A DNA stretch of 64,000 bases from assembly GCA_008632985.1 (NCBI GenBank), contig QPGO01000014.1, positions 758,289-822,288 on the forward strand. The letters are read 5' to 3'. The notes beneath the pieces are model-generated. The model saw only the letters and a list, made by a program, of their open reading frames with translations. It was not told where the DNA came from and made no database searches. The stretch comes from Psammoneis japonica (lineage: Eukaryota). Positions 1 through 43,799 of the stretch are shown here, piece after piece. The position numbers and the translations under genes are program-made. Every line of letters starts with the position of its first letter. Within the stretch, counting starts at the first letter, position 1.

Positions 1-3000
1 TGTCTTGGCCTGCAGTTTGGAAAACATTTTTGATTGCAGCCTGCTGGTGTGTGGGCGATGCCATCAACAAGAGCTACCACTCTGCAGTGAAAGATGGAAG
101 CAAGCAGAAAAGTGTTGCAAGAAGTGTCATGGCAATGATTGGGTGGGATGACAGCATCTGGACCTTGCTGACCTGGATGAAGCAGCCACAGCAGGAGAGA
201 TCCCACACTTTTGTGATGGAGTGTCCAATGCCGGACAAAGCTTGAGCACAGAGGAGAGCAGTCCATTCAAGCTCCAGAAAGCAGACAACATTGCACATGT
301 GTTCATTCATCAACATGCCTCAAGCTGCAAGTCACAAAAACCACTGCCAATCTTTCTGCCAGCCACAGATCAAACAGCAAGTGTGCTGCTTTTTAGGGCC
401 CAAGATTCAAAACAGGGGTGGCTCATCAACTCTCTTCTTGTTTCATCCATTCAAGAGCTTCTTGTTCTCTCCAAGTCTTTGGTGTGCATTCATGTCTCTG
501 TTGATTCAAGTGCAAAGAGCAGTCATTTCTTGTTTTGCTTTCTCTCTGCTGGTTGCTGGTTGTTGAGTGGTGCATTTTTTGTTGTCACAATTTGGAAATT
601 GGCAAGCCCAATCACTGCTTGAATGTCAACCCATTTTCCACATTTTAAGTCTCCAAAGTGCAAAATGCAACAAGCCCACAGCCCTCAATTGTTTCATGCA
701 ATGCAATGCAATTCTTTGAAAGGTGCCCAACATCAACTCAATTCAGTTGAAATCCCAGTTTGTCAATGACTCAAAATCACAAACATCAAACAAATGGCTG
801 CTTTTGACATCAAGCTCCCCAACTTCATTCCAGATGTGACTGTGCACCTCAAAGTTCATGGCCATGATGCATGCAAGCATGCTTTGTTGTCATTGTCAAG
901 CACTTGTGCATGAAAGAAAGCCAGTGCATCAAAGTTCAGCAAAAGGATGGAACACAAATTCATTTGTGTGTTCATTTCCTGCATTGGTGTGGTGATGTCA
1001 GGGGCAGAATCGATCGCAACTGTGCACTCACCATGATTGACATTTCTGCATTTTTGCCATTTTGAAATCCCGCCATCAGCCATTTAACACCCATTGTCAG
1101 CCATTTGGCAGTCTTTGTGCTGAAGCAGAATTTTCATTAAGGATCATTGTTGACCATTTGGCTTGCGCTGGCTCAAGGTCATTTAATGAGATGGGTCATG
1201 GGCTCATCGTCAACCAGCCAGAAGCATGAAATCTTTGCCAATTTTTCCTGAATTTTGCTGTGCTTCGCCGTGGTGAAACAACAAACCACAAGTCTGTGAT
1301 GGAGGAGGCATGTGTGCCAACTCTCATTTGTTTTGTGTTTGTCAAAGATTGCACGTGTGTGAAAAGTTGGCAGACAGCAAGCTGCATTTTTGAGAAATGT
1401 TGATCACTGTCATCATCACCCCATGCTTTGATTGCCATGCTGGTGGTTCTCATTTTTGTGTGTGACAGGGTGTGACTGTGAAAAGCTCTTGTCTTCAAAA
1501 ATGAGCAAAAAGCACCAGTGTTGCTTGGAAAGAACTGCCATTGTCAAAGCTGGGTCATTGTTTTCCGCTGTTTTTTTAAACAGCTTGTGATTTTCCCATT
1601 TCCCCATGCTTTGCCCGTGCTGTTTTGTGATGCCTCTGAGCACCCCGAAACACTTGTGAGTGTGTCCAGCCCACATCAGGGCTGTCAGACCTTTGTGTGA
1701 ACTAAACTTGTCAACCTTCAAATGCATGTTGTTGGCTTGGCAAGGTTGTCACATTTGACAAAGTGCCATTTTTTTTAAAGTCAGACTGCTTGTGGCAAAC
1801 AAGCCACAACTTTCCAGGAAATGCCCATCAGAGGCCCGTTTCAAGAATGAGCTGTCTTGTCATCAGACCAGTGGACAGTCTCGCAGATGACATGTGTGAG
1901 TGTTGTCACACAAATTTGTTTGTGATGAATCATCGTCATTCAACATGAATCACACCTGTTCACCACAAATGGGTGTGATTAAAAACTGACAAATGTCCAT
2001 GCCAACAACAAATGTCCCCGGGGATGTCAACAAACAGTCGTTGATCCCAATGAGTGAGTTGCAACCCAACAAGTTTATGACTCCAAACAAGTTGCCTGAT
2101 GGGATTTCACTTTGCTTGTCGTTGCCAACCAGGTGATGACCGAATGCAGCATTGGGGCACATTTTCAATTTTTGTTGTCAAAGTCAATCAGTTGACTTGT
2201 GTGTTGCAACAATCATTTTCGATTGTCCCATCCACTTGTTGCATGTCACTGCTGCAGTTGATTGTCAACAATTGTGAATGCAAGCAATCACTGCTGAGCC
2301 AATCTCAACCAAACCGCCACCAACTCCAGCTTGCATGTTTCAGTGCAGTTGACCTGGAGGTTGTCTTCATCATCCAAGCCATCCTGTGGTTCTTCTGCCA
2401 CCTGTTGATGTTGCTCAGTTGCAATGGCTCAGCAGAGCTGTTCCCAAGGGCCAAGTTGTCTGCTTGCAACATCTTGCTTGATCTTCACGACCATTTCAAC
2501 AAAGAACTTGTCAGCCTTTGGCAACCACCTTTGCTGTTCCTTGGTGTCTTGCGCTTCCCAAGTCCCCCATTTCCATCTGCATCTTTTGGCTTCACCACCG
2601 TGAAATGCTTGAGTGTCCTGCCAACCTTTCTCTTCTTGCTGGATGCACGTGCATTGTTTTGGATGTCAACAAGTGCTTTCGCAGCCTTGGTCAGAGCTGT
2701 GACTCATGCTGCAGTCTTTGGCTTGTCTCTAATCTTCTTGACCATTGCATCCCATTTTGCAAAGGACTCTTCCCTTGTGTTCTCAAACTTCTGTTTTAGT
2801 TCTTGCATTGACAAACCTTCCTCCTCCAGCGGCTCTTGTGGATCTTTCCAGAGCAGCACAAACATGCTCATGCCCTGGTCATCCTTCTCCTTGGCTGTTG
2901 TGAGGTCTGGCTGGCATGATGGTCTTGCACAAGTCGTTGCTTCCCTCTTGGACCGTCGGGCCTCCATCATCAACCAACTTCACATCGTAATCTGACATCA

Positions 3001-3413
3001 AAGTCCCGTCCTTGTTTTGGCTCTTGCAGTCAGCATGCCACGCATCGCAGTTGTTCTTGAGGAGCATGTGGGCAAATGCCTCAGTGCACACTGTGCTCAT
3101 CCTCTTGTTCTTGGCAGTGCACTCTTTCCAGCATGTGTCTCCAAAAATTGGACGCAGCATGCAGTCACAGAACACTGTCTGCAAAGCTGGGTTTCCCATG
3201 CAATCTTGGAATCTTTCCACAGATGGCAAGATGCAATTGTTGTCATTGCAGCATGCACAAAGAGCTTCATTCGCAGCAGGGAAAGCAAGTGACAATGCTG
3301 TCAGCAACTGCAATGGCTGTTTTTGTTGCACCATTTGTTTGCACATTTGACCTCTTAATTGCCAGCCACTCCTGGCACATCTTTTTTTGTTTCATTGCAA
3401 GCCACAGGTGGCA

Positions 3414-3676
3414 CAGGCATGTTTTTTGCTCTGGCATGGGCAAATCCTGCAGCATTCTGTCCATTGTTTTGGGGCTGCAATTCTGTTCATGATTCCTTCA
3501 GAGCATGCCTGTTTCCTCCATTTCCTTGTCATTGAGTGTGAACGTGCAGGCATGTTTTTTGCTCTGGCATGGGCAAATCCTGCAGCATCCTGCCTGTCAT
3601 TTTGGGGCTTCAATTCTGTTCATGATTCCTTCAGAGCATGTCTGTTCCCTCCATTTCCTTGTCATTGAATGCAAAC
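3414..3676. repeat. ~133-bp tandem duplication
   Basis: caggcatgttttttgctctggcatgggcaaatcctgcagcat... starts at 3414 and again at 3547. Several differences between the copies are CA<->TG swaps. Confidence 0.9.
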
Positions 3677-4534
3677 TTGACACTGAGGAACAATGTTTCC
3701 TTGACATGTTCTCTCACCTTCGCAATGTCCTGCATCACCTTGGCATCATGATCTGCCATCCAATTGGTTGAGCTTGTGTCCCGCTTCACAATGACCATTG
3801 TCCTCCACTGCTGCCTCAGTTTTTTTTTCTGGTGTGTGCTGAAGTGCACTGAAGTGATGTGATGGATGCAGTTGAGTCTTGTGGATGATGTGCACACAAC
3901 AGTTGTCTTTCGTCCTTCCACATGCTTTTTTTCTCACCTGGGTGGGGTCTTTTTTCCCCACACATTTTTTTTTTGCTGGACATCTGCACTCCAATTTAAA
4001 TGGATCCTCCCTCCAATTCAAAACATTTCATCTTCAATGTCTGAACATGTGTTTGCCATGATGTCCAATGTCTCTTTACAGCCAACTCTCCAACAGCCAT
4101 TGCCGCCATGCCAATTGACTCCCACTCAAAAATCCACCAAGTCTTCACTCAACAATTTGATTCAAAAATCAATCCAACACCTGCATGCCAACAAATGGTT
4201 GTGATCAAGCATCAAATCATTTCATCCTGCTTCTGCCACCTTCCTTTCCCAATTGGACTGTTAGCTTGGCATGCTTTTTTGCCACTGTTGACACCAATGC
4301 CAGCAAAATGCACCCTGCTCTGGTGCATCTGCCACAACTCAATTGAGCCAGCTGGTGCAAGCCGCTGTTTTTGTTTTCCAAGAACAGCAACTTGCTCATC
4401 AGTTGTCCGTTTCTGCCTCTGAGAAAGACCAAGCCACAAATCCCAGCACTGGTTTCAACACAGACTGCGACCCACCCAGTTTCCCACCTGCGGAAGATCC
4501 ACAGCTTTTTCCTGCACCTGATGAGGAAGCAGAA

Positions 4535-4563
4535 GAGGAGGAGGAGGAGGAGGAGGAGGAGGA
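4535..4563. repeat. (GAG)n microsatellite
   Basis: Direct run of gaggaggag... Confidence 0.9.
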
Positions 4564-7204
4564 CCAGTTTCAGATTCAGTGTCACCCTTGTTGAATGAAT
4601 CAGAGCAAGAAGAGAGACATTGCTTTCACTTGGGCATGACTTTGAGCTGGGGCATGACCGCAATGGGGGGAGAGGCAAACTGCCATGGGCTGTTGCAGCA
4701 TGAACTGCCAATGTGGAATCCTGTGGATTCTGGTCATGCTGCTTTCTCAGTTCTGCGCTGATTCACCAAAAACATCTTCCATTCAAACAAATGCAAAATG
4801 CATGAGCTTTTTTGACCGTGACAGTTTTGTCCAATGACACTGCAAGCCCTTGGACAGATTTTTGACCTGCAGTTTGGACAACTGTGAAGAGATCCATGCC
4901 TCACACAAACACAGGCAACACATCTGAATGAACTGGGGCAACGGAGCACAAAACAGTGACGGACAGATGCACACACACTGGGGACGCATGTGGGCACCAT
5001 GGAATTGTGACTTTTGGTGACAATTTCCAGAATCTTCTGTCCCATTCAAAGTTTTGCATTGTGCATGGGTTTTGTCATCAGGGCTGCATGCAGTGCTTCA
5101 TGAGTGTCCAAGCTGAATGTCTGTGGATTGAAAAGTGTCAAGCTGAGTCATTCTTCTGAAGTTGCTGACAAAAAGGAATGCCAACATTTTGTGTTCAAAC
5201 AATGTGTCAGTTTTGTGCAAAGAAATGCGTGGTTAAACACAAAAACAATGATGAAACAAACAACTGACTTCAGTTTAATGGAGAAAATTCTGGGACAAAA
5301 ATTTTGTCCTGCGAGTGCAGAAAAAGTTAAAACTCCAACTGTTTGGGTCTTGCAGCTCTTCTCATGCCATGTTCATGAAGCCATTGGACACAGGTGTTCT
5401 TTCAACCCAATGCAGTTTGATGTCACCACAATTGTCTGAGTCACTTAAAACTTGAGCAACACAAAGACAAGATGCTTTGCTTGCTTGGATGAAGCCAATG
5501 CTGTCAATCTTCTGTTTCTTTGTGAACAAGTTCAGCACAGCGGGTTTGGCAGAATGTTTTTGGCTCAGATCATTGTTGCTGCTGGTCTTGGCAGAATCAT
5601 TTGTCATTTTCATTGTGCATTTTGAGTGTCAATGTAAAATGAGATGCAGCTGCAATTGCTGCAAAACGTGCACAAGCCTTGTCAAAGGTGTGCCACTCAG
5701 GTCTTGTCGCAGTTGTTTGTTGTGCTGCACAATTCCAAAAACATTGTCACATGTGTGGCCCATCTCAAAGCATCAGCACTGCTGGGCAAGCTGCACATTT
5801 ACAGAAGCAGATGATTCTTTGTTGTCAATGCAACAGGAATCACATCATCAATTGTTGGATTCTGAGCATGCTGAAGTCCTGCTTGTTTGTGAGAATCAAC
5901 ACTTTGGCCCTGCTTGTGTGCAACAGTGTGTGCAAGTTTGAAACAGTGATGCCCTGGAAAAAGCAGCATCAAAGAAAATTGATTGGTTGCCATCTGGTGC
6001 AAGGACAGGACGTGCAAGAAAAAACATCGGCAAACAGCATTGGCAAAAAAGTGGGAGATGCAAGTCGTGGAAAGGAAGCAAGACTGAGAGAAAAGGACTT
6101 AAAAGCAGGATTTAAAAACAAGAGTGACAGTTGTCTCACCACACAAGATGACAGTGTCACAGCTTGGATTTGTTGTTTGTCACAAGTCATGAGAGAACAC
6201 CATGCCTGACTTTGCTGAATGCTTGCCTGACTTGGTTCCACCTCTTGAGAGGGGAGAAGAGTGCAATCTGCAATCTGACATGTGCTGCTGGCACCATGAC
6301 ATCTGAGTGCATGTTTGAACAAGATGGAAAGGCTCTCTTGTCAACATTGCCAGGCGTTGAGCATGCAACACAAGGACAAGGCAGCAAACATGTTTTGCAC
6401 TGGAGTGCTCAATGCTCAACAAATGGAGCCACTTGTCAAAGACAAAGTCAATCTGCTCCACATGATTGTGTGTTCTTCTTTGGCAATTTGCATGATTCAA
6501 AGGGTCAATGCTTTGCAATTGTTTGCACTTTGCCCCAAGACAGCAATCAGCTGTTTTGCCATGCAAACAACAAAGCAGCAGGAGAAAGTTTTCTCATTGT
6601 GGAGCCTGTCTTCACAAACTGTCTCTTGCCAGGAGCTCCAATGTTGGAGACATGCCATCCACTCCTGCCTCTCAAAAATCCAAAGTCTCTGTTGTGCAAG
6701 ATGCCATTTCATCATGCACGTCAGGGTGAGATGTGTTTCTTTGCTTTGGGGCACAAAACTGTTGATTTTGTGTCAGCTTCATCAGCTCAACATGACAAAT
6801 CCTGTGGTGTGTGGAATGCTTGCCTTTGTTGCATGTGCTGGACTGTCTGGCACTGGTGCTGTGTGCGAGACTGGTTGAAATGGACACTGTTGTGTGCAAG
6901 TTTTTTTTGTCCATTTTGCAGGATTTAGTTCTTCAACCAGCCAGCACAACGGCACCCATGGCACCGTCACACTGGAATTGTTTGGGGTTGCCCCACTTGT
7001 GTGATGACTTGTCACCTCAAATCTGTTGAAAGCACATTGGCTGAAGTTGCTTGCACACTCACCTGCAATGCCTTGTCACATGTAAAATGACCAAGCAGGA
7101 CAGACATTTCTGGTCATGCAATGTCCGTTGTCGATCTGTTGTGAAGTTGCTTGTTGCCCTTGACGTTTTGAATCTGTTCAGGCACATGCACACAAGACAA
7201 AAAA

Positions 7205-7895
7205 ACTCAACGGACGTTGAAAATCTGTTGAAAGTTGGAAGTTGCAACAAAAAACTGTTGAAGCTTGGAAGTTTCAACAAAAAAACTGTTGAAACTTTTT
7301 TCAAGTTGTTGAAACTTCAAAGTTTCAACAGTTTTGTTGTTGAAAGTTTGAGTTGCAACAAAAATGCTTTCAACAAAAACTCACACAAACTGCTGAAACT
7401 TTTGGGCTCTGCATCACATGATGTCATGCACTGGCCACACGTCAAAAAGCAGCAGCAAGCCAAGTTCAAGTTGACACTGCACGACAATGCAAACTGCCTC
7501 AAAGCAATGGCGGTGATCCTCCTGTGGTGAAATGTCCCTGAGAGACAAGCAAAGTTCTTGATGTGGGCATTAAAAGCCTCTTGATGAGAACAAGCCCGGC
7601 TCTCAGCTTCTGCTGTGTGTCCCAACATGCCAAGCTTTGGCGGTCCTCGGTGCCAAGTGTGACAGTGTCTTTGGCATTTCCCATCAATTTGTCTGAGTTG
7701 ATGGTGACATCATGAAGTTTCAGACATTGTGGGGATGAAATCGTGGTGACATCATGTGGTTTCAACAACGACTGTTGAAACTCAAAGTTTCAACAAAAAA
7801 TCTGGTGAAACTTTTTCCAAGTTGTTGAAACTTCAAAGTTTCAACATGTTGTTTGTTGAAACTTCAGAGTTTCAACAGGTTTTTGTTGAAACTGT
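7205..7895. repeat. Array of GTTGAA/TTCAAC motifs in two clusters (probable subterminal repeats of a DNA transposon)
   Basis: Many gttgaaa/tttcaac copies in both orientations. caagttgttgaaacttcaaagtttcaaca occurs at ~7302 and ~7818. Confidence 0.65.
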
Positions 7896-9521
7896 TGCCA
7901 ATTTTTTGGCAAAAATGACTCTTTTTAATCAACAATGTCGATTGTGTGTGCTTGCACACAAACAGAATCACTGTGTGTCATTTGTGCATGAATGTTGAGA
8001 ATCAGCCCAATTGACATCTGTGCACATTCAAGCATGAACATGACACATGTTGTCAAAAATGTGATTGTGCACTTGCCAGTGTGGCATTCATTGTTCGAGT
8101 TTCAACAGATTTGAGGTGACTCCCTGGGGGCTGATTTTGTGAAAATGGGAAGGAAGCATGGGAGTTGTGCGTGGAGACACCCGCCGGGTTCCTTTGGGCA
8201 TGCAGAGAAAGACCCAAGTGAGTGACAGACCATTTTCAAAAACAGTTTTTGATTGCCATGCATCTGGGTTTTATCAAACATCTGCCACATGGAGCCAATT
8301 GAGACCAGGCAAAGAGAGATCCAACCATGAGTCTCCATCTCAACAAACCTCTGTGGGACAAAGGGCAGACTCAAATGGCATCATGATTGCATCAAAAATT
8401 TCCCGGAAAATTCCAGGTCTTGCACACAAAGAGTTGCAATGGACCATGACGCGATGCTGACGGGTCATGACTCGCCCACTCATGAATGGTGCAACTGAAA
8501 CTCACAATGAAGTGTGCAAGAGTGCGTCTTGCACGTGATGGGGTCATCAAAATTGCAACAACTGAAGAGAAATGGTCACAAAATGGACTTCTGGTGAGTT
8601 GCTCTGTTTGCCAGTGTCGTTGTTGAATCGCAGTTGATGTCGAGCTGTTTCTCGCAATGCTTGTCACATTTTTTCCTTGCAAAGGAGTCCATTTTAGACA
8701 GCTTTTGAATTTTGTTTGGCATGGCAGCCATCAAAAATGTCGCGCTTCAGAGTTTTGAAGGAGCAAGGGTCAAGACAACAAAGCACTGGTGCTTTGCCTC
8801 GATCGACAGAAACGGCCTTGCCGTTGTCTCTGTCCCAGCACAACCAAAGACTGCTCATCCTTCACCACTTGGAAATTGTTGCACAAAACCATGGCATCAA
8901 AAATTGTGGACGAAGGCTTCAGGGCCATCATGGAAAGGGACGCAAACCGCAGAGACTTGGAGTGCCATGAATGAACTTTCCTTTCTGGGACCCCAACACT
9001 CCTGCAACGTTGGCCCAGAGAGTGTTTTGCGAAAGGAATCATGGGCAGCCAGGTGCAGGAGATTTGCAGAGCACCCGACCCTTGGCACTGTCATGAGTGG
9101 GGGATCCACAATTCCGAGTCGCACCACTTTGGCTGCTTGCCCTCACGGACCGGCAAGTCACGACTTTGAGCTCGACAAGTGTGCCAATCCAACAGTTGGG
9201 ACTTTTGTGGTCGTGTGCCGGAATGTTTACTCTTATAAACGAACACAATCACCACATGATAATTAGCTTTCCTAATGTGATATTTCAGGCGACTCCTTGT
9301 TCTTTGTTGTTCTGCGAACACTTCCAACTTGCACATACAAACGTGAGACGAACGAGACTTTGGTATCTTTCTACAGGAAACCGAACTCCTGACATTCATT
9401 TTCACGATTGTGCCCATAGCTGGGTAAGAACCCTACGATTTCCTCTCGTACCATCATAAAGTTCCAAAGTTGTGTTCTCATAAAAAAAGTTTCAAGTCGT
9501 CAATCACGTTCATATTTGACC

Positions 9522-10565
9522 ATGAGAGGAAAATTCTTAGCCTTAATCGCCCTTGGTTACCTTGGCGTAAATGGAAAGCTCCACAAAGGAGAAAATGCCC
9601 GTAAGGAGAGGAGCTTGATCGAAGACGGGGACGTCGTGAGAGTTGTAAGTTTCGTTATCTGATTACACAACACAATCTTGGCGATCAAATGTCTCATTAT
9701 AAAAATTGATTGCTTTGCTTTTGTTTCCACTGTAGCTGAGTGGAAGCGGAAACCCTGCCGTTTGTCCTGACAACTGCGATTGCCCCGACAACTGCGACTG
9801 TCCCGATAACTGCGACTGTCCTGATAACTGCGATTGCCCCGACAACTGCGATTGCCCCGACAACTGCAATTGTCCCAATAACTGCAACTGTCCCGACAAC
9901 TGCAACTGCCCCGACAATTGTCCCGACAACTGCAACTGTCCTCAGCCCCCGGATTGTAACTGCGAGGTAAGCAAAGGAATCTGCTTTGCGGCTTTACGTG
10001 TGTTAGCTAGCTAGGAGTTGTACTTCTTTGATTACGGTTCATTGCTCACCCTGCCGCTGCTTGATTGGTTTGTGGCTGCCAAATATAGCAAAAAACGAGA
10101 TGCGTGGAACCGAATGCTCTTAGTGAGACTCTCTGTGCCCAAACTTTCTCAGAAGAAGGTGATAGCGATGGTGGTTTCGGTTTCTTGCCTGAACCAAAGC
10201 TGTTTCCACCATTTTCTACTCACGACTTTGTCATGAGGAGCCAGTTGGCAGTGGTGGGTCCAGGATTGCACAGCCAGGCGGTGTGCCAAGGTGGCTTACT
10301 GCTTCTTGATGATACGGCCGCATTTGTGGGCTCCCTAGACTTCTCTGGTGTGCTTTCTGGCCCTGAAAGGCTTAGCCATCTCACAATCACAGGCGGAAGT
10401 GGAGTATTTCGATCAGCAACCGGAGCCTTTACGATTTGGAGCCTTGGCGCGAATTGTAATGTTGATGCAACGGGTTACTCAGGGCTCGTATCATACCTCA
10501 TCTCGGTTGTAGATCTCTGCCTCTTGGAAGAAAACTACGACATCCTCTTTCCTGCTGCTCCTTAA
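9522..10565 (+). CDS. Secreted protein with Cys-rich (CPDNCD/N)n repeat and C-terminal dirigent/allene-oxide-cyclase-like domain; 3 exons (9522-9644, 9736-9966, 10089-10565)
   Basis: Signal peptide MRGKFLALIALGYLGVNG. Two phase-0 GTAAG...TAG introns join the exons in frame with ORF 10104-10565. Motif LTITGGSGVFRSATG resembles the dirigent GG(T/S)G.F..A.G motif. TA content is normal. Confidence 0.75.
9763..9940 (+). repeat. 18-bp coding tandem repeat (~9.5 units) encoding CPDNC(D/N)
   Basis: tgyccyrayaactgcray units, with variation mostly at third codon positions in the Cys-Pro-Asp-Asn-Cys frame. Confidence 0.95.
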
Positions 10566-13500
10566 AAGGCGCATAAGGTTAATGACTAGAGTTTCGTTAC
10601 AGTAGGGTATTTCATTCATGGTGGAGCTGAGGGATGGCCAGGTGTCAGCGCCAAAGACATTGAGGATATCCCCTCTTTTTATGAAGCTACATGTACACTC
10701 TGAAAGATTTGAATCTGCTGTTTTAGTCACGTTCAAGTCGGGCCCGATTTGCAGATTTTCAAGTGGGTGCGCAGCAGGACGAAATGCATGCGGAGAAGAA
10801 CGTGTTAAAGACTAATGCGAGGTCGCATTTCACGTCGGGACGGTGGATCACGCTGTCGCTTGGGTGGATCTGGATCGAGGATTGAAATTTATTTGAGTAT
10901 GGGAAATGAACTTCAGTCACGGTCCACTGCATGAATGGCTGAAAGATGTTAAACTGCAAAGTTGACATTGTGTTACCCATGGGTCCCCTTTGGAGGAGAG
11001 GGGAACACTCACATGACCCACATTCGCTCCATGGGCCCGCCAGGAGCTAGCAGTAGAAGCATTGGCCACCAGCTGCTGCCAGTGGCTGACACTCTCAACT
11101 CTACAACACTCTCTTACAGCAGCAGTGGCAACAGAGAGGGACCCCCATTTGACATTGGCCTCATCATTTCTGAGACAATGGCAGTCCCTCCTGATGAGCC
11201 CATGGTGTGAACATTGGTTGTCTGAGTGTTCCCCAACTTTCAGCCATTTGCGCGGTGACAAAACATGAAAAAATGAGGGAAACAAAACTCTTTGCTCTCT
11301 TGTCCAATGCACTGTTGTGTCGAGAATTGCTGCACTTGCAGCAACTTGGTTCGAAATGGCTCTCATTTTCTTTCCCAAACCTGAAGCACTGTGCATTGTT
11401 TTGCTTGGCTCATTGCCTTGAGTCTTTTTCTTGTTGGCTCTGTTTCCCATGAAAAGATTTGGTTGGCATTTGATGCTCTTAGGGAGGAAAGCAAGGTGGC
11501 CATCAGTGAGGAGCTCCAACCAGACCTGGTTGTTGCAAAGAGCACAATGAATGGTGGTCACTTTGAGCTCACCCAGCGACATCTTTCATCATCATGCAAG
11601 GCATCTCTCATCAAGGAAATCAATCAGGAAGAGTTGGACCACTTCACGTTTGGCAAGTTGGCTGCCTTGGATGGAAAGTTGCACTTTCATGGAAAAGATG
11701 CAGTTCACTGGGAAGAACTTTGGGTCTGTGATCCTCATCTGTGACAAACCAACATTGAATGGTGACAGAGCAACAGAACCTCAGGTCACTGAGGGGCCAA
11801 GGAAACAGCACATGGAAACAATGTGTTGCATGTCTGACATGCTTTGTGATTGGGCAAAAGCTGCTCCTGGATGGGACAAGGTGCCATTTGCTGCAGACAA
11901 ATGGCAGAACGCTTGCTTTGCTTCCAAACTTTGCGACAAATTTGGTCTGAACCATGTCAACAAGAATGGCAAACAGGCGCAACTTTTTGAGCACTTTGCA
12001 GTGGCCATGACTTTGTTGAACTAGTTGGATCCCATCACCAAACTGCCTGCATTGCTGGGATGCCATGCAGACAACTTGAATTGCAGAAAGAAGAACTGCA
12101 ATGCTCTCATGTGCATCTGCTTTCATGTGTGCATTGTGCATTGATGGTGAGTCATTGCTTTGGGTGTGCCTTTCATTTTTGATTCATGCAATGTTCATGC
12201 TCTGACGTTGTCATTGAGTTGTTTCCTGCAAGGCAAATGGCACCAAATGTGTTCAATCAGAAATGGTTGTCGTTGCTGCTCTGAGTGCTTCACTCGTCTG
12301 GCTGGCAGTGACAAGACGCTTTGTCAGATGTTGGGCTTCTTCTGCTCCTTGTTTGAAGAGCATTGCCAAATTGATGCATGGCCATTTCCTGCTGCCATCA
12401 CATTCTGTTGGGGTTCACCATCCTTTTCCCAACATGAACAAAACAGTGTGGGAAGCAGCCTTTGCCTCTGCCACACTGCACATGCTGCAGTCTTTTCCAA
12501 CCTCCATGGAGCAAAAATTGTGAATTGCTTCTGCCAGTGGAATGGTTGACCACCCCTGTTCAGATGTGTGAAGTGCACAAAGGATGGGTGAAGAATGGTC
12601 TTCCCACCACTGGCAATCTCACTGAGGCACTCGTCAATGAATGCATGTGTCATTGTGGTGGGTTGTTGTGTGGTGACAGCAGCTGCAAACGTGGCAATTT
12701 GTTGTGCATCATTTGCTCTTCTCCAGTCCATTTGAGCAATCAAGCTTCTTGCGCACTGTGACAAGAAGAATGATGTTCCAAATGTCATTGGTGTGGCAGA
12801 CATTGGTGCACAGCATTTGGTTGCAGTCAGCAGTGTTGTCACCATGTGCAAGGATGTGACATTGGCAGAGCAAGCTTGGGTGTGTGCATCCACACATGTG
12901 CACAAGGTTGTCAATGAGACATTTGGTGTTTAAGCTCCTGTGGCAAACGAGTGTCACAAAACATTTGCTCAACTCACCGGCACAAATGCAGCAATGGCAG
13001 AGAATGTTCCTTGTGAAAAACTCAGAACTCTTGGGGAAAATGCAGACTGTGTGATGTCCAAGCTTGTCAACAGTGGCATGTCTCAATGGATTCAGAAGAA
13101 CAGTCACTGTCACATGCCTGACACTGGCTGTTTGCCATGATCAATCAATCTTTGCAATTGAAAATGGCACTGGGATGGAATCCTTTAAGAAGTGTCATTC
13201 AGATGAAGGAGAGGAGCATGATCTGGTTTGTCAGCCAGTGGAACTTCCCCAGTGCAAGATCAACAACAGACTTGACACAGATTGTCCCTGGGTGCTGGGA
13301 AAGTTTGTGTCCTTTAAACCAGTGGAAGTTGAGACTTCCAAAACATCCGTCCTCCCAGAAGATTGCAAGAAGAACAGGGCTGGAAAGAAGAAGAGTGCCA
13401 AATTCAATGAAAACAGCCACTCTTGCATGGGAAGAAACTGAGCATGGGAAGCAGCTCTTTGAGCAAAGGCAGACAGGAATTCCAAACTTGACTTCAAGAT

Positions 13501-14589
13501 TGACAAATGTGAAGAGGATGACCAACCTTGCTGCACCAGTGTCAACAAAGATCTCAAGTTAATGCTGGCTCTTGGCAGACAAAGCATGACGTGGAACTTG
13601 ACTTGTCCCGACTTGGAAAGCACATTTGGAGCCAACCAATCAGATGGCACATGTCAAATGACAGAATTGGTGAAGTTGGCCATGACCAGTCTTGGTGCAG
13701 CAGCTTCTCAGAAAAGGAAAAGAAGGAAATGCCAATTGGTTCATTGTGCAGCCAATGAACAATTTGGTTGGAATTCAGTTTTTGCTGCCACTGTTGCTTC
13801 TGTGCAATGAGATTTTTTGCAGAAGAACTGCAACAATTGTGTCTTGCCATTGGAAGGACCAGTGTCAGAAAGATGTTGAATTCTGCCAGACACATTCACA
13901 AGCCAAAGCCGCTGTTCTTCTGAAAGCCATCTCATGCCGCACACCAGAAACTGAGACACAGTCGGGAACAAAGATGGACCCAAAATGGGCCACAGATTTT
14001 CTCCACCAGATTCAAGAATGAATGTTTTGGGCAGAGATTTGTTGCACACATGCACTGCCACAGGTCATGGCAAAAACTCAAGAGCAGCAAATGCACTGCT
14101 TGGCATGCTGTTCTTTTAAGGCAGATGCCGGATTTTGTCTGTCCCTGCTGACAAAATGGATTTGAGAAGAATGTGGCAAGACTGCTGTTTACAGAAGTTG
14201 CAGTTGAAGCATGCAACTGCCAGAAAATTCTTGCCAAGGATCAAGCAGTTCAGTGTGATCATGTTGCTGACAATTGCTGTGGCATCCACAGGAATGTTGC
14301 ACAGCTGCCTTTGTAATTTGGCAAAGTTGCCAGTCAGTGAGGGAGTCAACAACATTGCGATCAAGATTGTTGGTCATCTCTGTCAATTGGCACTGTTGAC
14401 AACTTTGCTCCTCTCTGTCAATGTTTGCTTCTGTTTGTCTGTGGCTGGGAACACCAGGTGGCAGTGCTGCAGTGCCACAATGGATGATCTGCAAGTCATT
14501 CCCAGCTTCATTCCATTCAAGCCCTTTCTCCCAAGCAATGTCGCAGGCAGCCAGCATCAGCCAATGCAGGACATTGACGTTGATGCATT

Positions 14590-15410
14590 GCATTTTACCA
14601 CGCAGCTTTGAACGTCTCTCTTTTGGCTCTGTCACCATCAAATCCACACACAAATGCACAGCAGGTCCAAGGTTGCAGGAAATCAGATGACACAAATCTT
14701 GATCCTGATTCTCGATTGTGCTCATTGATCTGACAAAAAAGATTGTTGGTGTGACCAACATGTGTCGACGTGTTGTCTTTCACTGAAAGCAACAAGTGCA
14801 CAAATCCCGATTCATCCCTGGGATGATCAAAGTCTTTTGGATGACATGGGAAGCATCTTAAGTCAAGCTCCAGTAAAGTCGTTTCACTCCCTTGAAATTT
14901 CTCAAGGAAGTGGCAGATGAAATCAGTGCATTGAGTGCGACGGAGGAGTGTGCCAGCCAGAGCATCTGTGCTGTCTTGTCAGGCTCACCAACAAACATGG
15001 TGTCTTGTCCACATTGTGTTCTAGACAAGAGGACTGCAATCTGTTCTTTCATCCAAAGAGAGTGCTCCTCCTTCAACAAATTGACCCCTGTCACCAAAGT
15101 TTCTGTTGTTTGACCAATGATGGAGTGACTTGTGCAAGCAACTCAATGTCACAAGCCATGTTGAGAGTGTCAAATTTGAAGTCCGCCTGGGAAAGAATGT
15201 GTTCTGGACAGAACACAAGGCATTGAAACTTCTCTCCATTGCAATTGGAGAAGCAGGGATTTGGAAGCACCTTGAGGAGGAAGACTCTTGCATCCCTCTG
15301 GGGCAACTGTCACTTGAATGGGTTCCATGTTGTGCTGATGGCATGTCTTCCTTGCACACAGCAGCAAGTTGCTTGGCACGGCATTTGTTGTCTTTGTTGT
15401 GCAACACTTT
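14590..15410 (-). mobile_element. Helitron-like remnant: PIF1-type helicase C-terminus followed by GIY-YIG endonuclease
   Basis: Minus strand reads GFVHLLLS...STHVGHTNNL...INEHN..SGS...LQPW (GIY-YIG with Y->H). Upstream LWMKEQIAVLLSRT...TMFVG resembles helicase motif VI. Confidence 0.6.
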
Positions 15411-15489
15411 TTAAAAACTGCACCAGGGAAGAAGAGTGACTCCAATGGCATCTTTGATTCTTTGGACAAAAAAAAAACAAGCTCTGGTT

Positions 15490-18400
15490 TTAAGTGCTGT
15501 TGCACCTTTGCCCAGCAACACCGGCGCCAGCTAACCCACACTTCCAGTGCACCCTGCGAGGGATGAGGCAGAAGATTGTGCAATTGGCCGGACTTGGCAC
15601 CCCCGGATGGGGCGCCTGACGGAAACAGCTGAAGATGGTGCAAGTGCCTCTTTTTGCCAGGCGTTTGGCTTCTTTCAAGCTTTCTTTGAGTCTTGGGCGG
15701 ACCACAGAGATCCAATTTTGAATCCTTGTTGCAGCGAATGTACGGTGTTCTTCGACTGAATCCAGCAACACACCTCTGTCTTTTGCCAAGTGTTCCTGAT
15801 GTTTGTTGTAAATCGCCATTAGTTTGGCTTCCACCTTTCTTGTTGCAATGACTTACGAGACTCCATGTTGTGTCCATTCACCAGCTGGTTGTGCTCCTCC
15901 CACAGTTCCCACCAGCTTCTCCACACGCAGGAACCTGTCTGGACTGTCCAATCTGGTGGTTGTTTGTTTTCCTTGTGACATTGACGCAAGATGCCCGAGT
16001 CGCGAAGACAGCCAGATTGAAGGAGGTTCCACATGAATGATTGTCTGCCGCTGAAGATCTGTCGCCATCCTGTGTCGGATTGAGCTTTCCACAACTCCTT
16101 GCATCTACAATCCACGTTGTCCAAGATGCATGATTTCTTTGTTAAACCATGCCTGCAGCATCTCCAATAGAAAGTCATGGAGAGCAGGCATTGTGTCCAC
16201 TTTGTCGCAGCATTTTTGCAGGCCTTGTAGAAACTTTCTCCTCCACTGTTTGTTGTTTGGACATCGTAGGATGTGATCCCCATCTTCCATTGGATGATCA
16301 CATGCAATGCACTGGTGGGGCCGAACTGGATCATGTCTGTGTGCAATTTTGTTGGCAGGTGGCAAATCACAGACCAATTTGACCATGTTGACGTGTTGCT
16401 TTGAGTGGCGTTTCACTGGGACTGCGTGGGCTTTCCAATCAATTTGATCAACAACTGAAGGGTGCCATTGGTTGTGCTTGACAATGTGTTCAATCAGTTG
16501 GGGAGCAGTGGCTGCGCATCTGATCTGTTTCTTGTAGTTTGTCGTGATTGCACTGCCTTCTATCTTGAGGTGGGAATGGCAATGTGGAAAATGTTTCACC
16601 TGCACCGCATCATGTGGACAGTGTTCTTGACATGCTCCTGCCAATCTGTCAGCACGGATGTCAACACGAGCATTGAGAGGCAAAGTGTGAACAGGGGGGT
16701 GCCTGTCTTGATGTCCTTTGACCCAGAGGACAGGAGGGAGAGCAAGGTCCTCTGAATCCGAAAGCCGCAGCAGAGCTTGCTGGGTGTGAAGGATCTCATT
16801 CAGTGCGCCCCAGTCTGGCGATGGGGCATTGGCCCCATGATGGCTGACATGAAAATTGTGAGTGGCTTGAACCTCTTCATTGAGATCAATCGCTGGCAAG
16901 GTAGATGTCAATCAAGACAAACAGTCAACCAAAGCCTTGTTGTCACAATGGACAACTGCATCCAGAGGAGCATTAATTCGACAATGTTCACACAGTTGAA
17001 AGATGAACCATGCAATCAATGGAATGCCGCAGGCCTCCACTCGGTGTGATGACAGTGTCTTTCCAAAGACTGGTCCTGCGCAATCCACTGGTGGAGTCCC
17101 GTCTGGTGTGATTGTCCAACTGAAGGCAGCTCCCTCCTGGACAGACCCGTTGCTGCCTGCCATGAGAGCAGACAAAAGAAAATGCTGGATCAGAGATTGA
17201 GAAGGAATGTGCAGTGCCAACTCATCAAACAACGTTGATTCCCAAGATGACAACTGTTGAAGAGTCTTGAGAAATGAATCTGGCATAGCGGCAGGAGTTG
17301 AGGACGTCAATGAGGTACGCGGAATCTCAAATTGCCATCAACCGTCCTCAGTTGTGGACACTTCTACCGGACAGGAGTCTTTGGAAGGGGTTGGCACTGT
17401 CTCTGTTTCCACCATTGAATCTGTTGTTGTTCCATTGGCTTGAAAAATGTTGTGACCATCCAAAGTGCCTGCATGCAAATGATCTTCAGATGGAGAAAAG
17501 CATGCGGTAGATTGCACTCTCATCTGTGATGGTGGAACCAGCCAATTGCCCAAAGGCTCCTTTAATCAATGTGTTCTTGGATGACACAAACTTGAGAGCA
17601 GAATTTCTTCCACACAGTCCAGGCTCTTGAACAAGGTTTGTGTTGCTCAATGTCATTGAGAGTGATGGTGCTGCTGTGCAGGGAAGGATCTCCTTTCACT
17701 TTGGACCCATTGAGAGTTGTCCCATCTGAAAGAGTTACATCTGAAACTGATGAGGCCTGCAGATACAAGCGGCAACAGTTGGTCCAACGGATTTCCCTCA
17801 TGGAGAAAGTCTGGGACTGCAATGCCACATCCATCAAATGTTGATCATTGTCTTGTTGAAGTGGGAGTGCGCTGTTGTGAGATGAGAACACTTGGCCATT
17901 GATCTCATGCAAAAATGCTCAAACTGACGCAAACCAGCGCAATTCCATGTGAGGTAACACTGTCTCCACGTCCCACAAGAAACTGTCACCAGTCCCCAAA
18001 TTCAGCTGAATCCATGCCACTGCAATGTGGAGAAGCTTGTGCGGCTGATCTTCCCCGAGTTGCAACTGTGCAACTCCTCTCAAGTGCTTTGACAATTGCT
18101 GAAGTTGAGCCACCCCTTGTTCAACATCTAACAATCAAAAACCTCCTCCTCCTGAGGACTGTGGTCTGTACAGTGTGAGCCTTTCGGTGTTTCTGTTGCA
18201 TCCACATTTGGCAAACATTGTCCACATGGCCTTTTGTTGGACCTGTTGGAGTTCTTTTGGAAGGAAATTTGAGCCAGCCAGCACATGTGTCATCAAGGAA
18301 AGGTGACACGCGTGACAATGCCGCCATGTTTTCATTCTATCCAGCAGGCACGACCTTAGAAACAAGGCAACGGCATTGCTCTTTTTTTGCAATTTAGGAG

Positions 18401-19870
18401 CCATGCAGTGTCCCAGGGTTTTGTGGGGAGCACAAGCTGACAATTGCTGACTGCACCTGGAGGTGGTTTGGTCAGCAGAAAAGATCTCTGACTTGATGTC
18501 GTCATGGCAGGGGCAGATGTGCGGCTCACCATGTTCTGTAAAGTCCCATTCAATGGCGTGGAAACAACACTTTGGCAGCTCCAATTCTTGTCCTGCAGCA
18601 TCCAATGAGTCACACCACAACTGGTCATCCGATTGGAGAGACTGGGACAACTTGAAAGCAGAAGGCTGAGGACTGGCTCTGAAATCATTCACTTGCTTGG
18701 AAGTGTCGTCAACATGACCTCTGTTGTGGACTTGGATGTAAAACTGCCCATCTGGCGTTTCAAAGAAAGGAGCCACAACAGCTTCAATGTCAAAGATGTC
18801 AAACAGTCTGCTGCGTGAAGTGTTCCAGTGCAAGGGAGAATTGCCACTGCATCTTTGATTCTTTGGACAGATGTTTTGACACCATGGCCATGCAGCTGGC
18901 TCTCTGATGTCCTTCCAGTGTGGACTCTTCATCCTGAGCCATGACAGCGATGCTTGGCACATGGTCAGTGTTGCGTGTCTTGTTGATGAGCATTTTTTCT
19001 GCTTGGAAGATGGCATTCCACCTCCTGAACACCTGGAGAGCCAAGTCCAGAATGCCGGGGTTATCCCAGCTTGGAACATGAAGTGAAACAGACTTGGCAA
19101 GACTTTTAAACTCCAACATTGTCTCTTGTGTCAGGTCTGTTGGAAGAATTCTCATCATGTCTTGCACTTGTTTGTGTGGTTCATCCAAAGAAGCTCTCAC
19201 AGATTGCTTCAACTGAAACAATGCAAAAGAGGTCAACAAAAACAGAGACAACAGTGGAGGACAACCTTGAACTGGGGGCAACTGCATGGGGTCCATCGTG
19301 GATGCAACCAAAATGCTGCCCATGAAAGCATTCAATCTGCAAATGCAATGCAGCAAGACATCCAAAGCAGCAAGCAACTCTGCCAACACCTGTCAAAGTT
19401 TGTCTGTCAACAACACATCCACATTTCCTTCGGTTTGCCATGTGGTTTCATGATGGTGATTTCAGCTTGTCGTGCAAGGGACCTGTGACTGGGCCTCAGT
19501 CAAGACCATCTGTGCATGTGCCGTCCTGCCAAAGCCAATGCACACTCAGCCATGTGAGCTGTTGACAAAGTGGTGAGGCCACAAGACATTGCCTTGATGC
19601 CCGCTGTCTCCACTCTGCAAAAAGTTTTTCAACACCCCGGACCACCCGCAATGCAGACAGATTTTGTGGCGGTTCTAGTGTTTGCAACACAATCATCTCC
19701 AAACACAACATCTGCTGCTTCATTGTTCATGGAAAATGCAGAAAAAGCACACACCCACAGCTGACTTGCTCCACAGTCAACACACAGCAGCACACTTGCC
19801 AAATGTTTCATCACAAATCTTCAACAGGTCCCACATCATTCCATCATTTTCCTCCCTAGACTGAAAGTTT
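15490..19870 (-). mobile_element. Decayed non-LTR retrotransposon (RT + RNase H + C-terminal Cys/His motif)
   Basis: RT motif GHVDDT and LELPKC..H. CRLYLQ..SVSDVT..DG. RNase H motifs GSNGSV..GAAFSW, SSHRVEACG, VHCDNKALV, WVKGHQD, NARVDIRADRLA. C-terminal CIAC...EDGDHILRC. Broken by stops and frameshifts; ends approximate. Confidence 0.85.
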
Positions 19871-21465
19871 CACAAACCAAATTTCCCAAATCAACAAACA
19901 ATGTCAAAAGACTCATGCCATGTGAAAGATCAGTCCAGATGGGCCGCTGCAAGCTCTGGCAAAACAACAGGCAAAATGAAAATGAGAGCGGGACAAAAAG
20001 CCAATTGTGAGCCACTGGGACACATGTCACAGCACACTCACCAGGGCACCTTCCAGAGAAAGTTCTGTGTCACCCAGCCAAATTTCATGGCCCCAAGCAT
20101 TGCCAGCAGTTCCTGCATGACAGACAGTGAAGACAACACCATTGCAGAGCAGGAAAAAAGGGCCATTGTAGACCAGATGCATGCACGTGTGAACCAGACA
20201 CACAAAAAAAAGGCTCGTGAGGTGCACAACTTTTGCAAAAATGACTCTAAAACTCAATCAATCACAACACACTCACATGATTATCTTCTTTGGAGTGTGC
20301 CAAGTCTGTCTGACAAATGCCAACATGTTGTGAGCATCCCCAAGGCTCCACTGCATTGTTTTGTTTCCACAGTGTGCACTTTTCAGAAATTGTGACGCCC
20401 AAAAAATGGCACGCCACAATGACGAGCCAACCAAAACCCCAAGAAGCAAATTAATGGGATCACAAGTCCATCGAGGTGTCAACAACAGTTGCACCAAAGG
20501 ATGCAGAGTGGGGCGAAGTGCAAAGCTCCCAAATGGATGCAAAGTGCAGCAGTGATCTTCAGTGACCAGGAAAACAACATAAAACAAGAAAACACAGAAA
20601 AAACTTACCTCGGCAACGTGTCGACCATTCAGATGTCACCCGCACCGTCACGAGTCGATGAACTCAACCGTTTGCACCGTGTGCAGCACAACCAAAGCAC
20701 CCCAGGAGACCGAACCAATGTGTCAACCTCTTTGTGACAACAGCAAAAAAAGATCCCCCCCACACTGCGACATGCATGGCCGTTTCTTACGGAACGACAT
20801 GCCAAATCGGGAGCGTTTGAGTGGAATGAAGGAAATGAAGAGGATTCCTCGTCAGGCGTCCTTGTCAAGTTTGTCCCAAAATGGACTTCTGCTTTCTCTT
20901 GTGTCCACATCAAAATGGAATTGCGTCCTTGTCAAATTCCACCGTGTGCACAAGTTCCAGTGCAATCCCACTGTGCACGTCACATGGAGCCATTGTCGAT
21001 CCCGTCTGACCGTGGCCACCAAAATTTTTCACCACGCGAAAAAAAATTTTTTTTGTGGAACGAACTGCCACGGCGACATCTCAACCAGTTCCAATGGGCC
21101 GTTGCGGCCTCTCCATGAACCAATGCGGAGCGACGCAGACATCTTCTCTTCCTGTGTTGAGTGGTGTGTAGCAAGAGGACACATCCAACATGGAGATGCA
21201 TTGGTGCTCGACACAATGCTTCGATTCACCTTCGCCATCACGAGTCGGAATCTCTCGATGAGTGTCTTTTTCGATGAGTTTGGCATCTTGCTTCTATTCC
21301 TGCCAACTCACCCCTCGAGTTGAATCCCATAGAGAAAATGCGGCTTACACTAGCACACGATGACTCAAAAGCTGGGACCTTCACTGTCCGCGTCCGGTGC
21401 GAGGTGCGAGACGAGCAGCGCACGCTGCTGCAGCCAAAATGGATTCGTTCATACATGATGACGTT

Positions 21466-22052
21466 TGTCATGTGGCACAAGGCCCATTGTGGGTGATTGT
21501 GGTGATTTTAAGAGTCGTTCATGAAAAGTGAGACTATAAAAGTGTAAAATTATGAAGTGAATTTCTGGAGCGGTGATCTCGCGGAATGTTCTTTCGATTC
21601 TTTCTTTTCCAGAGAAATTCTGTTCTCGTTATGTAGGAACGTTCCTGGGTTCTTCTTTAAGTGTGTGTCGTCTAAGGGAACGTCTTGGGACTTCTGAGGA
21701 GGTCACGTATGGTGTCCGAAAGTGTCACGGGAAAAATCGAGAGATCCGATTCGCTCTTCATCGTTTCGACCGTTTTCTTGTGAGAATCGGATTGGCTGAA
21801 AAGGAACTTGAAGTTCGGCTAAGAAATGTCTTCTCGATTTACTTAGGAAGTGACACACGTGTCCAGTTGTTTACTATCGCTTTCCGCATGTGTCCGGTTG
21901 TTTATTTAGGAGGAAGATGTTGGACAATTGTTCATGTAGCATGCATGTGTCTCTTGATGTATGTTCACGTAGATGTACATGGGGTTCTGTCCGTAGTTCT
22001 CTATTGTTCTTTATGACGTCTCGAAGTGTCGGGTCATGAGCACGACGTGACA
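21466..22052 (-). repeat. 3' LTR of Gypsy 1 (mutated copy)
   Basis: Direct repeat of 27494-28079 with 9 substitutions and 1 indel by manual alignment. Confidence 0.97.
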
Positions 22053-22075
22053 CGCGCCTCCTCCAATGAATCGCA

Positions 22076-25000: not shown

Positions 25001-25245
25001 AATCGACAACGAGTGAGTGCGACATGAGTTGTCTGATGGGTCTGCGCAAACAAGGTCTCCCATCTTGTTGGTGCTAAGGTGGCCTCATCCAGTGCTTCTT
25101 TTGAGAGCACATCTCTCTTTGTTGTTGTTCGACTGCTGCCGCTGTCGAGTGAGGCGAGTGGAACATTGTTGCTTTTGTCTCGAGTCCCATCAACTGGATC
25201 GAGTAGTTGAAGTCGCACGATGCATCGGGGTTCTTCCACTTGCAT
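22076..25245 (-). pseudogene. pol: Gypsy 1 pol (protease, RT, RNase H, integrase), frameshifted near 24540
   Basis: ASLDSGSS protease; FVTDFRLLN, RLPMGL, FIDDLL RT; YTDASKYQLG, AFYSRKL, YTDHKNL RNase H; HPG..R, DTVGP, HDNGAEF, NPQAN..LER integrase. Confidence 0.93.
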
Positions 25246-27323: not shown

Positions 27324-27493
27324 GTCCTCCTGTACTGTATAAGTATTATCTTGAGGTAACGCTCTAAAGTACTATTCTTCAGTTCCGTCGAACTGGGGGC
27401 TACGTACGTAGGCTTTCTTCGCCTTAAGTAGAATGCTCAGTACTATGCTGAGAGGCGGTATTATTATAATGATACGCCACTGTTTGATCAAAA

Positions 27494-30517: not shown

Positions 30518-30619
30518 GTCCAGTTGGCACTCGTAAGATACGGTAATTGTCAGCATCCCCTCTAGGAACTACAGACACTTTTTCGGATGTCTAATAAGCT
30601 GTTCGCTTTTTTCGGATGT

Positions 30620-43523: not shown

Positions 43524-43799
43524 CGTTATTGTCCTTCAAAACCTTACGTCAAGAAGTTCAAAACCGATTCTTCTAAAACCAACAATCCAACAGAACAATG
43601 AAGCTTCAATTCAACAGGAAGCAGGCAATGAGTGGATCGTGGTGCATCAAGTGGCGACCGTATTGTTGCTGTTTCAGCGAGTGGCAGAAAAGTGAAAACT
43701 GAGCTGGCGTGATGGGTGATGGGTCGCGAGTAAGTCGTGAGTCGTGAGAGCGCGGTGATGGGAACCGACGTGAAAGCAAGAAAGGTGGAGGTACGCAGT

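Follow-up and report, generated by a model that had tools for sequence, protein, structure and literature searches.

The DNA analyzed here, a window of 64 kb (64,000 nucleotides of contig QPGO01000014.1 of Psammoneis japonica), contains several host genes, two Ty3/gypsy retrotransposons (g1 and g2) and long blocks that are almost devoid of the dinucleotide TpA (TA). The origin of these TA-depleted blocks, and the rules by which TA was lost from them, are the subject of this study. An open reading frame (ORF) for an ABC1 kinase is located at 39684-41465 on the minus strand. It has 403 relatives in the databases (best identity 58%), and all matches bearing the name of an organism belong to pennate diatoms (Seminavis, Nitzschia, Mayamaea, Cylindrotheca, Fistulifera, Epithemia and Pseudo-nitzschia). 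Further ORFs of the window encode a SNF2/bromodomain/RING helicase, a SET-domain protein, a leucine-rich repeat protein, an FkbM-type methyltransferase and the proteins of the two Ty3/gypsy elements. Compared to expectation, the window as a whole revealed a TA content of 0.31, a CG content of 0.62 and a content of 1.5 for CA and TG, but these values are unevenly distributed. TA depletion occupies seven stretches of the window, and the blocks in which it is most advanced are called saturated below (Table 1).

Table 1. Transposons and saturated blocks of the window. LTR, long terminal repeat; word counts are given as TTAA / words reading TAA on one strand / other TA words.
Feature	Positions	Strand	TA per kb (counted in)	Word counts	Remarks
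g1, young Ty3/gypsy element	21466-28081	-	38		LTRs 21466-22054 and 27494-28081; target-site duplication CGTT
g2, partly mutated Ty3/gypsy element	54452-59753	-	17.4	22/42/28	LTRs 54452-54886 and 59321-59753; target-site duplication CTCC
Saturated block	1-9227		3.5 (1-9050)	17/14/1 (32 TA in 1-9050)	CG 11.6 per kb (1-9050); contains 600-8000
Saturated block	11116-21150		3.6 (11150-15650); 7.1 (15651-21150)	8/6/2; 5/16/18	11150-15650 fully, 15651-21150 less saturated; edge at 11115
Saturated block	30656-34007		2.8 (30750-33950)	1/7/1 (30750-33950)	Starts exactly at an LTR-like direct repeat, 30656-30913 / 32338-32584, 77.6% identical
Saturated block	43793-46634		1.4 (43750-46650)		Gypsy integrase remnant 44247-45084
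Saturated block, left part of an old block split by g2	53550-54451		1.2 (53550-54350)
Saturated block, right part of the block split by g2	59754-61640		1.2 (59750-61450)		CG 7.1 per kb (59750-61450)

To describe the loss quantitatively, 30,946 bp of unmutated DNA within the window (1151 TA) served as reference, while word counts in saturated DNA were based on 27,655 bp in six blocks (103 TA). Per kb, the saturated blocks contain 3.7 TA compared to 37.2 in unmutated DNA, 14.0 CG compared to 51.1 (27% of the unmutated level) and 227.8 TG plus CA compared to 152.8. The losses of TA (33.5 per kb) and CG (37.1 per kb) stand against a gain of 75.0 TG plus CA per kb, and the GC content is 0.48 both in and outside the blocks. 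Inside the blocks, the products TG and CA are balanced and interspersed; a strand-run and dispersion test on the saturated blocks detected no strand-coherent clustering of TG versus CA. The limits of the blocks are sharp to tens of bases (9228, 11115, approximately 34008, 43792, 46635, 53511 and 61641). At the end of the first block, the final sparse TA is located at 8695 and dense TA begins at 9228. Dense TA ends at 30646, ten bases ahead of the LTR-like repeat, and the next TAs follow only at 31035 and 31073. Beyond the right part of the block split by g2, dense TA is back at 61641.

The few TAs of the saturated blocks share a peculiar sequence context. It had been claimed in a preliminary description of this DNA that they reside mostly within TTAA, and indeed all 12 sites listed there were present (within one to two bases), to which five more TTAA can be added (1980, 5328, 5446, 7571 and 7926). 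The region 600-8000 harbors 28 TAs, namely 17 TTAA, three TTAG, three GTAA, two CTAA, two TTAC and one TTAT, all 28 of which read TAA on one or both strands. From the flanking base frequencies, a TTAA share of only 7.6% would be expected (17/28 observed, binomial p = 8e-13). Among the 103 TAs of all saturated blocks there are 32 TTAA, 46 words with TAA on one strand (one-TAA words) and 25 words without a TAA reading, 18 of the latter being located in the less saturated part 15651-21150. The respective numbers for the 1151 TAs of unmutated DNA are 54, 403 and 694 (approximately 5%, 35% and 60%). Expressed as the per-kb count in saturated over that in unmutated DNA, the survival of TTAA is 0.67. 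It drops to 0.24 for CTAA/TTAG, 0.14 for GTAA/TTAC and 0.05 for ATAA/TTAT, ranges from 0.05 to 0.06 for CTAG, GTAC, CTAC/GTAG and ATAG/CTAT, and is 0.008 for ATAC/GTAT and 0 for ATAT. In absolute numbers, zero ATAT were observed in saturated blocks versus about 69 expected, one ATAC versus 146 and four CTAG versus 64. This count of NTAN words had been set beforehand as a test of the TTAA claim, and TTAA was clearly not depleted like the other words (0.67 versus 0-0.24). A uniform loss over all words was rejected (likelihood ratio 119.7, 3 degrees of freedom, p = 9e-26), a result that holds with three baselines. A model with four parameters, in which the rate for the A of each strand is set by its 3' base, fits the ten NTAN classes (chi2 = 8.3, 6 degrees of freedom, p = 0.21). 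With three baselines and two block sets, the fitted rates are 2.5-3.1 for T, 1.6-2.3 for C, 1.1-1.5 for G and 0.15-0.26 for A. The order T > C > G >> A is robust, in line with the earlier suggestion that TA loss depends on the flank and affects TAT foremost.

Timing and direction of the change can be deduced from the LTR pairs of the two gypsy elements. The LTRs of g1, which encodes reverse transcriptase, RNase H and integrase domains, are 98.3% identical. At eight of the nine substitutions, the right LTR has TA where the left one has TG (three) or CA (five). Thus, eight of 32 ancestral TA sites were changed versus none of 32 CG sites. Broken down by strand context, the hits in the left LTR amount to 6/20 for TAT, 1/15 for TAC, 1/12 for TAG and 0/17 for TAA. 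The element g2 (LTR identity 93.8%), which is nested in a saturated relic, has lost half of its TA and none of its CG (60.7 per kb). Its LTR pair revealed five single TA changes, seven sites at which TG of one LTR faces CA of its partner, and five CG changes; five of the six TAs kept in both LTRs read TAA on at least one strand. The use of TG/CA double sites in old repeats as direction markers was abandoned, since an ancestral CG yields the same pair. The differences within the LTR pairs of g1 and g2 show that the elements had already been inserted in the chromosome when the change took place, that either strand is affected and that CpG decays more slowly. All eight g1 changes are found in the left LTR, approximately 300 bp from the saturated relic ending near 21150, and none in the right LTR, which could be due to spread from the adjoining relic or to patchy action.

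Codon changes in the older element point in the same direction. A comparison of g2 with 30 relatives of 50-59% identity comprised 598 consensus columns, of which 137 differ in g2. Foremost among these differences, Tyr was replaced by Cys in 14 columns and by His in 12; next come Ile to Val (9), Leu to Pro, Ile to Thr and Thr to Ala (6 each) and Val to Ala (5), and each of these changes agrees with the prediction for TA to TG/CA. At the 29 columns with a Tyr consensus, g2 now possesses 14 Cys, 12 His and a single Tyr. Its Tyr content is 0.17-0.34%, and that of the ORFs in saturated blocks 0-0.6%, compared to a median of 3.83% and a minimum of 2.81% in 120 database homologues. By contrast, the host ABC1 gene, which was used as a control, has kept three of five conserved Tyr residues; the other two are Phe, and neither Cys nor His occurred. 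In the saturated block 43793-46634, the integrase remnant is 35-36% identical to the g2 integrase (tblastn) and matches 54789-55541 at the nucleotide level (blastn). This remnant and g2 share replacements at two conserved Tyr columns (44415/55521, Cys; 44830/55101, His); some changes may date back to an ancestor that was mutated before but still able to transpose.

The process is not a genome-wide bias but is confined to transposon DNA, as judged from the 64 kb window on which the comparison of host and transposon DNA rests. This follows from the values of non-ORF host DNA (49.5 TA per kb in host stretches outside ORFs of at least 100 amino acids), of an island at 9228-11115 (37 TA per kb) and of the g1 LTRs, which are of equal age and yet differ by eight changes to none. 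The island, 1.9 kb in length, is located between two saturated blocks and contains a short tandem repeat (9759-9941) and a longest ORF of 158 amino acids. A Pfam match above the cut-off was obtained neither in the island nor in the other unassigned ORFs, and the island could be host DNA or have been inserted later.

The young element was also compared with contigs of a sequencing run (X1), which may be the sample from which the window was assembled. On a stretch of 10 kb, 1000 pieces of X1 contigs were placed, and since their depth peaks over g1, the g1 family is repeated. The variant places over g1, at which other copies deviate from it, are led by A>G (262) and T>C (294), with C>T at 207, G>A at 195 and the eight kinds of transversions together at 200. 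Repetition alone appears to be insufficient as a trigger because g1 belongs to this repeated family and is nevertheless little mutated. The Tyr content of g1 pol is 1.55%, again compared to the median of 3.83% in 120 homologues. At 26 columns of g1 pol (22076-24595) in which at least 60% of the 120 homologues have Tyr, ten Phe, four Cys, four His and five Tyr were found. The exchange of Tyr for Phe (TAY to TTY) might reflect a transposon lineage losing TA targets while its function was kept. A single X1 contig connects 21434 to 28079 with 25 other letters that resemble the left flank of g1, one TA being read as CA; this joint may stem from a related locus or from an allele that lacks the element.

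Taken together, we consider it likely that the blocks are old transposon insertions whose TpA dinucleotides were hypermutated in place after insertion and in a flank-dependent manner. The data themselves show in which direction the change runs, that it follows insertion, affects either strand, stays within transposon DNA and outpaces CpG decay, and how the words rank in survival. According to this explanation, TpA would be converted to TpG or CpA, i.e. A to G on either strand, at the DNA level and within the limits of the element, and CpG in the same DNA would decay more slowly, as expected of methylated transposons. The TpA reaction would proceed most rapidly where TA is preceded by A or followed by T, less rapidly with C or G at the corresponding places and most slowly in TTA or TAA flanks. 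Since TTAA has an unfavorable flank on both sides, it would be nearly refractory and remain as the main TA at saturation. The agent would be enzymatic, with a DNA adenine deaminase as the most likely candidate (its product, hypoxanthine, being read as G), and might be recruited by whatever marks transposons for silencing. For the deaminase step taken by itself, the chances appear to fall slightly short of even. The flank effect would amount to a preference. Since TTAB words were hit on either strand, it is probably sensed, at least in part, on the DNA duplex. Speculatively, the stiff AA/TT stacking beside the TA step might hinder base flipping.

A stricter rule would be that A is deaminated only in 5'-T-A-(T/C/G), so that TAA is never a target and one-TAA words disappear via the other strand. 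This target had essentially been proposed before, based on 16 polarizable changes, none of which was followed by A. Only 13 of them were found, all in the two LTR pairs, with T (7), G (4), C (2) and never A as the 3' base, whereas the inverted-repeat pair 7240-7360 / 7773-7893, cited as a further source, differs at 26 columns, none of which pairs TA with TG or CA. Nine more TpA events (3' base T 3, C 4, G 2, A 0) come from other members of the gypsy family, among 40 of 1169 variant rows listed. Including these, all 22 polarized changes have a non-A 3' base, and the absence of TAA is unexpected given its share of 22.5% in the strand contexts of g1 (p ~0.004). In addition, all six events in one-TAA words of the LTRs and other copies, among the rows listed, affected the non-TAA strand. 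Word survival cannot separate "A followed by non-A" from a flank effect of the whole site, and therefore the direction of change in one-TAA words is needed. Here, the codons provided a different picture. Of the conserved Tyr codons preceded by T (TTAY) in the two gypsy elements, five of eight became His (TCAY, a change on the TAA-reading strand) and three Cys; in the integrase remnant, two extra Tyr columns were identified, neither with a preceding T. Three Leu to Ser changes in g2 now read TCA, two of them in would-be TTAA. At codon junctions of g2, T|AA was converted to T|GA in two of 12 cases, compared to 6/10 for T|AT and 6/12 for T|AC (Fisher test for 2/12 versus 12/22, p = 0.066), while junctions without a preceding T gave zero to four such changes per class. 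Altogether, nine hits in one-TAA words concerned the non-TAA strand and five the TAA strand, which would hardly be expected from a rule of roughly 90:10 (p ~0.009) and is compatible with 50:50. In a joint fit, the strand-wise model (Akaike information criterion, AIC, 134.4) and a duplex-symmetric flank model (AIC 134.3) tied. The survival part of the negative log likelihood is best for the additive strand-wise model (22.0 versus 24.7 for the duplex model), but its direction part is worse than that for 50:50 (40.2 versus 37.4). An excess of TTGB over TCAB of +9.3 per kb is near the 11.4 per kb predicted by the strict rule, though this is a weak indication confounded by CpG decay. The strict rule is therefore regarded as rather unlikely. 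What stands of the proposed TA(T/G/C) target is the preference expressed in the fitted rates, whereas "never A" does not agree with the changes of TTAY on the TAA strand and of T|AA. TAA is a poorer target but not an excluded one; in our interpretation, TAA and TTA flanks each slow the reaction several-fold, and TTAA has both.

The same data can be read with thymine as the attacked base. If the T of TpA is modified, e.g. hydroxylated to 5-hydroxymethyluracil (5hmU) by an enzyme of the TET/JBP type, and C takes its place on reading or repair, the resulting T to C at V-T-A exactly mirrors A to G at T-A-B on the opposite strand, and all counts fit equally well. In dinoflagellates, 5hmU prefers TpA. 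On the other hand, 5hmU pairs with A and is not known to cause near-exclusive T to C changes, and this chemistry is judged improbable. Shielding of TTAA itself, for instance by a binding protein or by a TTAA-specific adenine methylation, combined with a mutator devoid of any flank preference, would account for the survival of TTAA far above that of any other word. However, survival of one-TAA words is intermediate and graded by the other flank (0.24, 0.14, 0.05), and words without TAA are unequal as well (ATAT 0/69, ATAC 1/146 and CTAG 4/64 expected), which makes shielding quite improbable. Still weaker is the case for a genome-wide TA to TG/CA bias in neutral DNA, with selection preserving TA in genes. 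Old age, the absence of coding function and the presumed neutrality of the blocks would fit such a bias, but so much TA in non-ORF host DNA and in the island, the eight-to-none ratio of the g1 LTRs and the sharp edges speak strongly against it. Modified bases can give systematic miscalls on some sequencing platforms, and an artefact of sequencing or assembly at such bases would also produce apparent changes. Yet an X1 contig with a word depth of 66 over 28994-31300, a span with roughly 650 bp of saturated sequence, differs by only one letter and one gap, a finding limited by the possible origin of the window from X1 itself, protein homology is gone in the blocks, and Tyr codons were replaced by Cys and His codons in open frames; of all explanations, an artefact is the least credible. 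Hardly better is the case for transposon RNA that was edited in an ADAR-like manner, reverse transcribed and inserted in edited form. The identifiable hypermutated elements are retrotransposons, and ADARs prefer a 5' U according to the main text of a preprint (bioRxiv 10.64898/2026.01.13.699255), but LTRs, which are identical at insertion, differ by TA to TG/CA in both orientations, and the products are strand-balanced.

Several observations weigh against in-place hypermutation of transposons by a deaminase, or at least against parts of this explanation. None of the 83 ORFs of at least 110 amino acids in the saturated blocks (20 of them in the block 1-9227) gave a Pfam match above the cut-off, and a transposon origin was shown by homology for a single saturated stretch, 44247-45084. 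The element g1 stems from a repeated family and is nonetheless little mutated. Survival was calculated against a baseline of unmutated DNA of other origin instead of the true ancestors, and some TTAA could be secondary products of TCAA or TTGA instead of survivors. With respect to the strand, the evidence is divided: the non-TAA strand was hit in six of six cases in the LTRs and other copies among the rows listed, but in only three of eight Tyr codons; the difference TTGB minus TCAB (22.4 per kb in saturated versus 13.1 per kb in unmutated DNA, p = 0.056) is confounded with CpG decay. Finally, deamination is a guess derived from sequence, from which A-directed and T-directed chemistry cannot be distinguished.

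A literature search for TpA-directed hypermutation of foreign DNA returned one 2026 preprint on a chlorarachniophyte and no report on diatoms; in a 2025 preprint on diatom transposons, the relevant terms are absent. According to the main text of the former, integrated viral DNA of Bigelowiella natans is hypermutated, with A>G and T>C occurring only at TpA (Mettrop et al., bioRxiv 10.64898/2026.01.13.699255). Its main targets are insertions of giant viruses and virophages, the process was seen live in mutation-accumulation lines, with 231 de novo mutations, rho for TpA is 0.45, and adenine deamination on DNA by an ADAT2-like enzyme was proposed (bioRxiv 10.64898/2026.01.13.699255). The same main text makes no mention of the flanking context or of TTAA (bioRxiv 10.64898/2026.01.13.699255). 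As far as this text allows a comparison, both systems have in common that A>G and T>C are restricted to TpA, that foreign DNA is affected exclusively, and that TpA is depleted while CpA and TpG are enriched. Tests on a hypermutation of this type were passed here with regard to the changes at TpA, to the confinement to mobile DNA within the 64 kb window and to the decrease of TpA accompanied by an increase of CpA and TpG. What separates them is the host, a diatom-like organism instead of a chlorarachniophyte, the targets, LTR retrotransposons and unidentified repeats instead of viral DNA, and the extent, saturation alongside CpG decay instead of the mild depletion described in that text.

Repeat-induced point mutation (RIP) of fungi is similar in that transposon copies are hypermutated in place, with sharp limits, in a dinucleotide context and up to unrecognizable relics. 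However, RIP converts CpA to TpA and has an AT-rich outcome, and a RIP-type test failed here: the change runs in the opposite direction, and the GC content stays at 0.48. Moreover, duplication alone does not appear to be a trigger, g1 being a barely touched member of a repeated family. The decay of CpG by deamination of 5-methylcytosine yields the same products, TG and CA, in the same blocks, but it is a separate and slower process, as can be seen from the g1 LTRs (CG 0/32, TA 8/32) and from g2, where CG remains at 60.7 per kb with TA halved. ADAT2/TadA and ADAR enzymes, which convert A to inosine (read as G) and prefer a 5' U or T, resemble the putative agent, although the natural substrates of both are RNA. 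ADAR favors G at the 3' side, and the base following the edited position in tRNAs (position 35) is G, A or C but never U, neither of which matches the order T > C > G >> A. With APOBEC3, the process shares the deaminase-driven hypermutation of retroelement DNA in a short context. APOBEC3, on the other hand, converts C to U in minus-strand cDNA prior to insertion, resulting in strand-pure G to A changes, while the changes observed here are A to G, affect either strand and postdate insertion.

The occurrence of TpA hypermutation in a diatom-like genome, where it saturates ordinary retrotransposons, suggests that the phenomenon is widespread and not an oddity of one alga. To the kind of hypermutation described recently, the present data add a second lineage, retrotransposons as targets, saturation, a comparison of its speed with that of CpG decay and a flank rule. 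This rule constitutes the first fingerprint of the agent at the sequence level and offers a criterion for choosing among candidate deaminases. It is conceivable, though we would sooner bet against it than for it, that a dedicated defence by DNA editing, the reverse of RIP, is common to diatoms and chlorarachniophytes; it would turn TpA of silenced mobile DNA into TpG/CpA more rapidly than methyl-CpG decays, and its enzyme would read the duplex flank, act fastest on ATAT and find TTAA refractory. If this is true, the specificity of the fingerprint would suffice to recognize the enzyme and to trace the system in other eukaryotes by sequence. There are also practical consequences. Dead elements keep long open frames because the conversion of TA to TG/CA abolishes TAA and TAG stops without making new ones, and the 83 ORFs in the saturated blocks are distributed over several frames and both strands with Tyr-free, Cys/His-rich translations. 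An open frame in such a block is therefore no sign of function, proteins poor in Tyr and rich in Cys and His can mislead gene callers, and relics of this kind escape homology-based repeat annotation. Conversely, such translations permit a cheap screen of protein databases for the phenomenon. In a protein search with g1 pol, the best matches are 39-46% identical, so that the database searched lacks the copies of this organism itself, and hypermutated relatives were not detected, none of 120 matches having less than 2.8% Tyr, a result to be read with the fact that best-scoring matches favor intact copies. None of 106 further matches to g2 fell below 2.36% Tyr. A metagenome search with g1 pol yielded 13 distant loci (22-44% identity), and TA depletion was present in none of the 13.

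Some minor features of the window deserve mention. The first block holds a tandem duplication (3414-3679) besides its inverted-repeat pair, and the region 7240-7893 is composed of direct and inverted copies of a unit of approximately 120 bp, rich in GTTGAAAC / GTTTCAAC and with zero TA, resembling a small foldback element. On the minus strand of the second block, 14598-14978 resembles GIY-YIG weakly (17.9 bits, under the cut-off of 22.6; E = 0.004) and may be the relic of a Penelope-like or other GIY-YIG element. The loss of CpG in the saturated blocks is flank-dependent as well, with a survival of 0.16-0.18 for TCGA, ACGA/TCGT and CCGA/TCGG and of 0.50 for CCGG and CCGC/GCGG. At the right end, an open frame of 755 amino acids (61736-64000) with PT-repeat matches and internal tandem repeats (62786-64000) extends past the end of the window.

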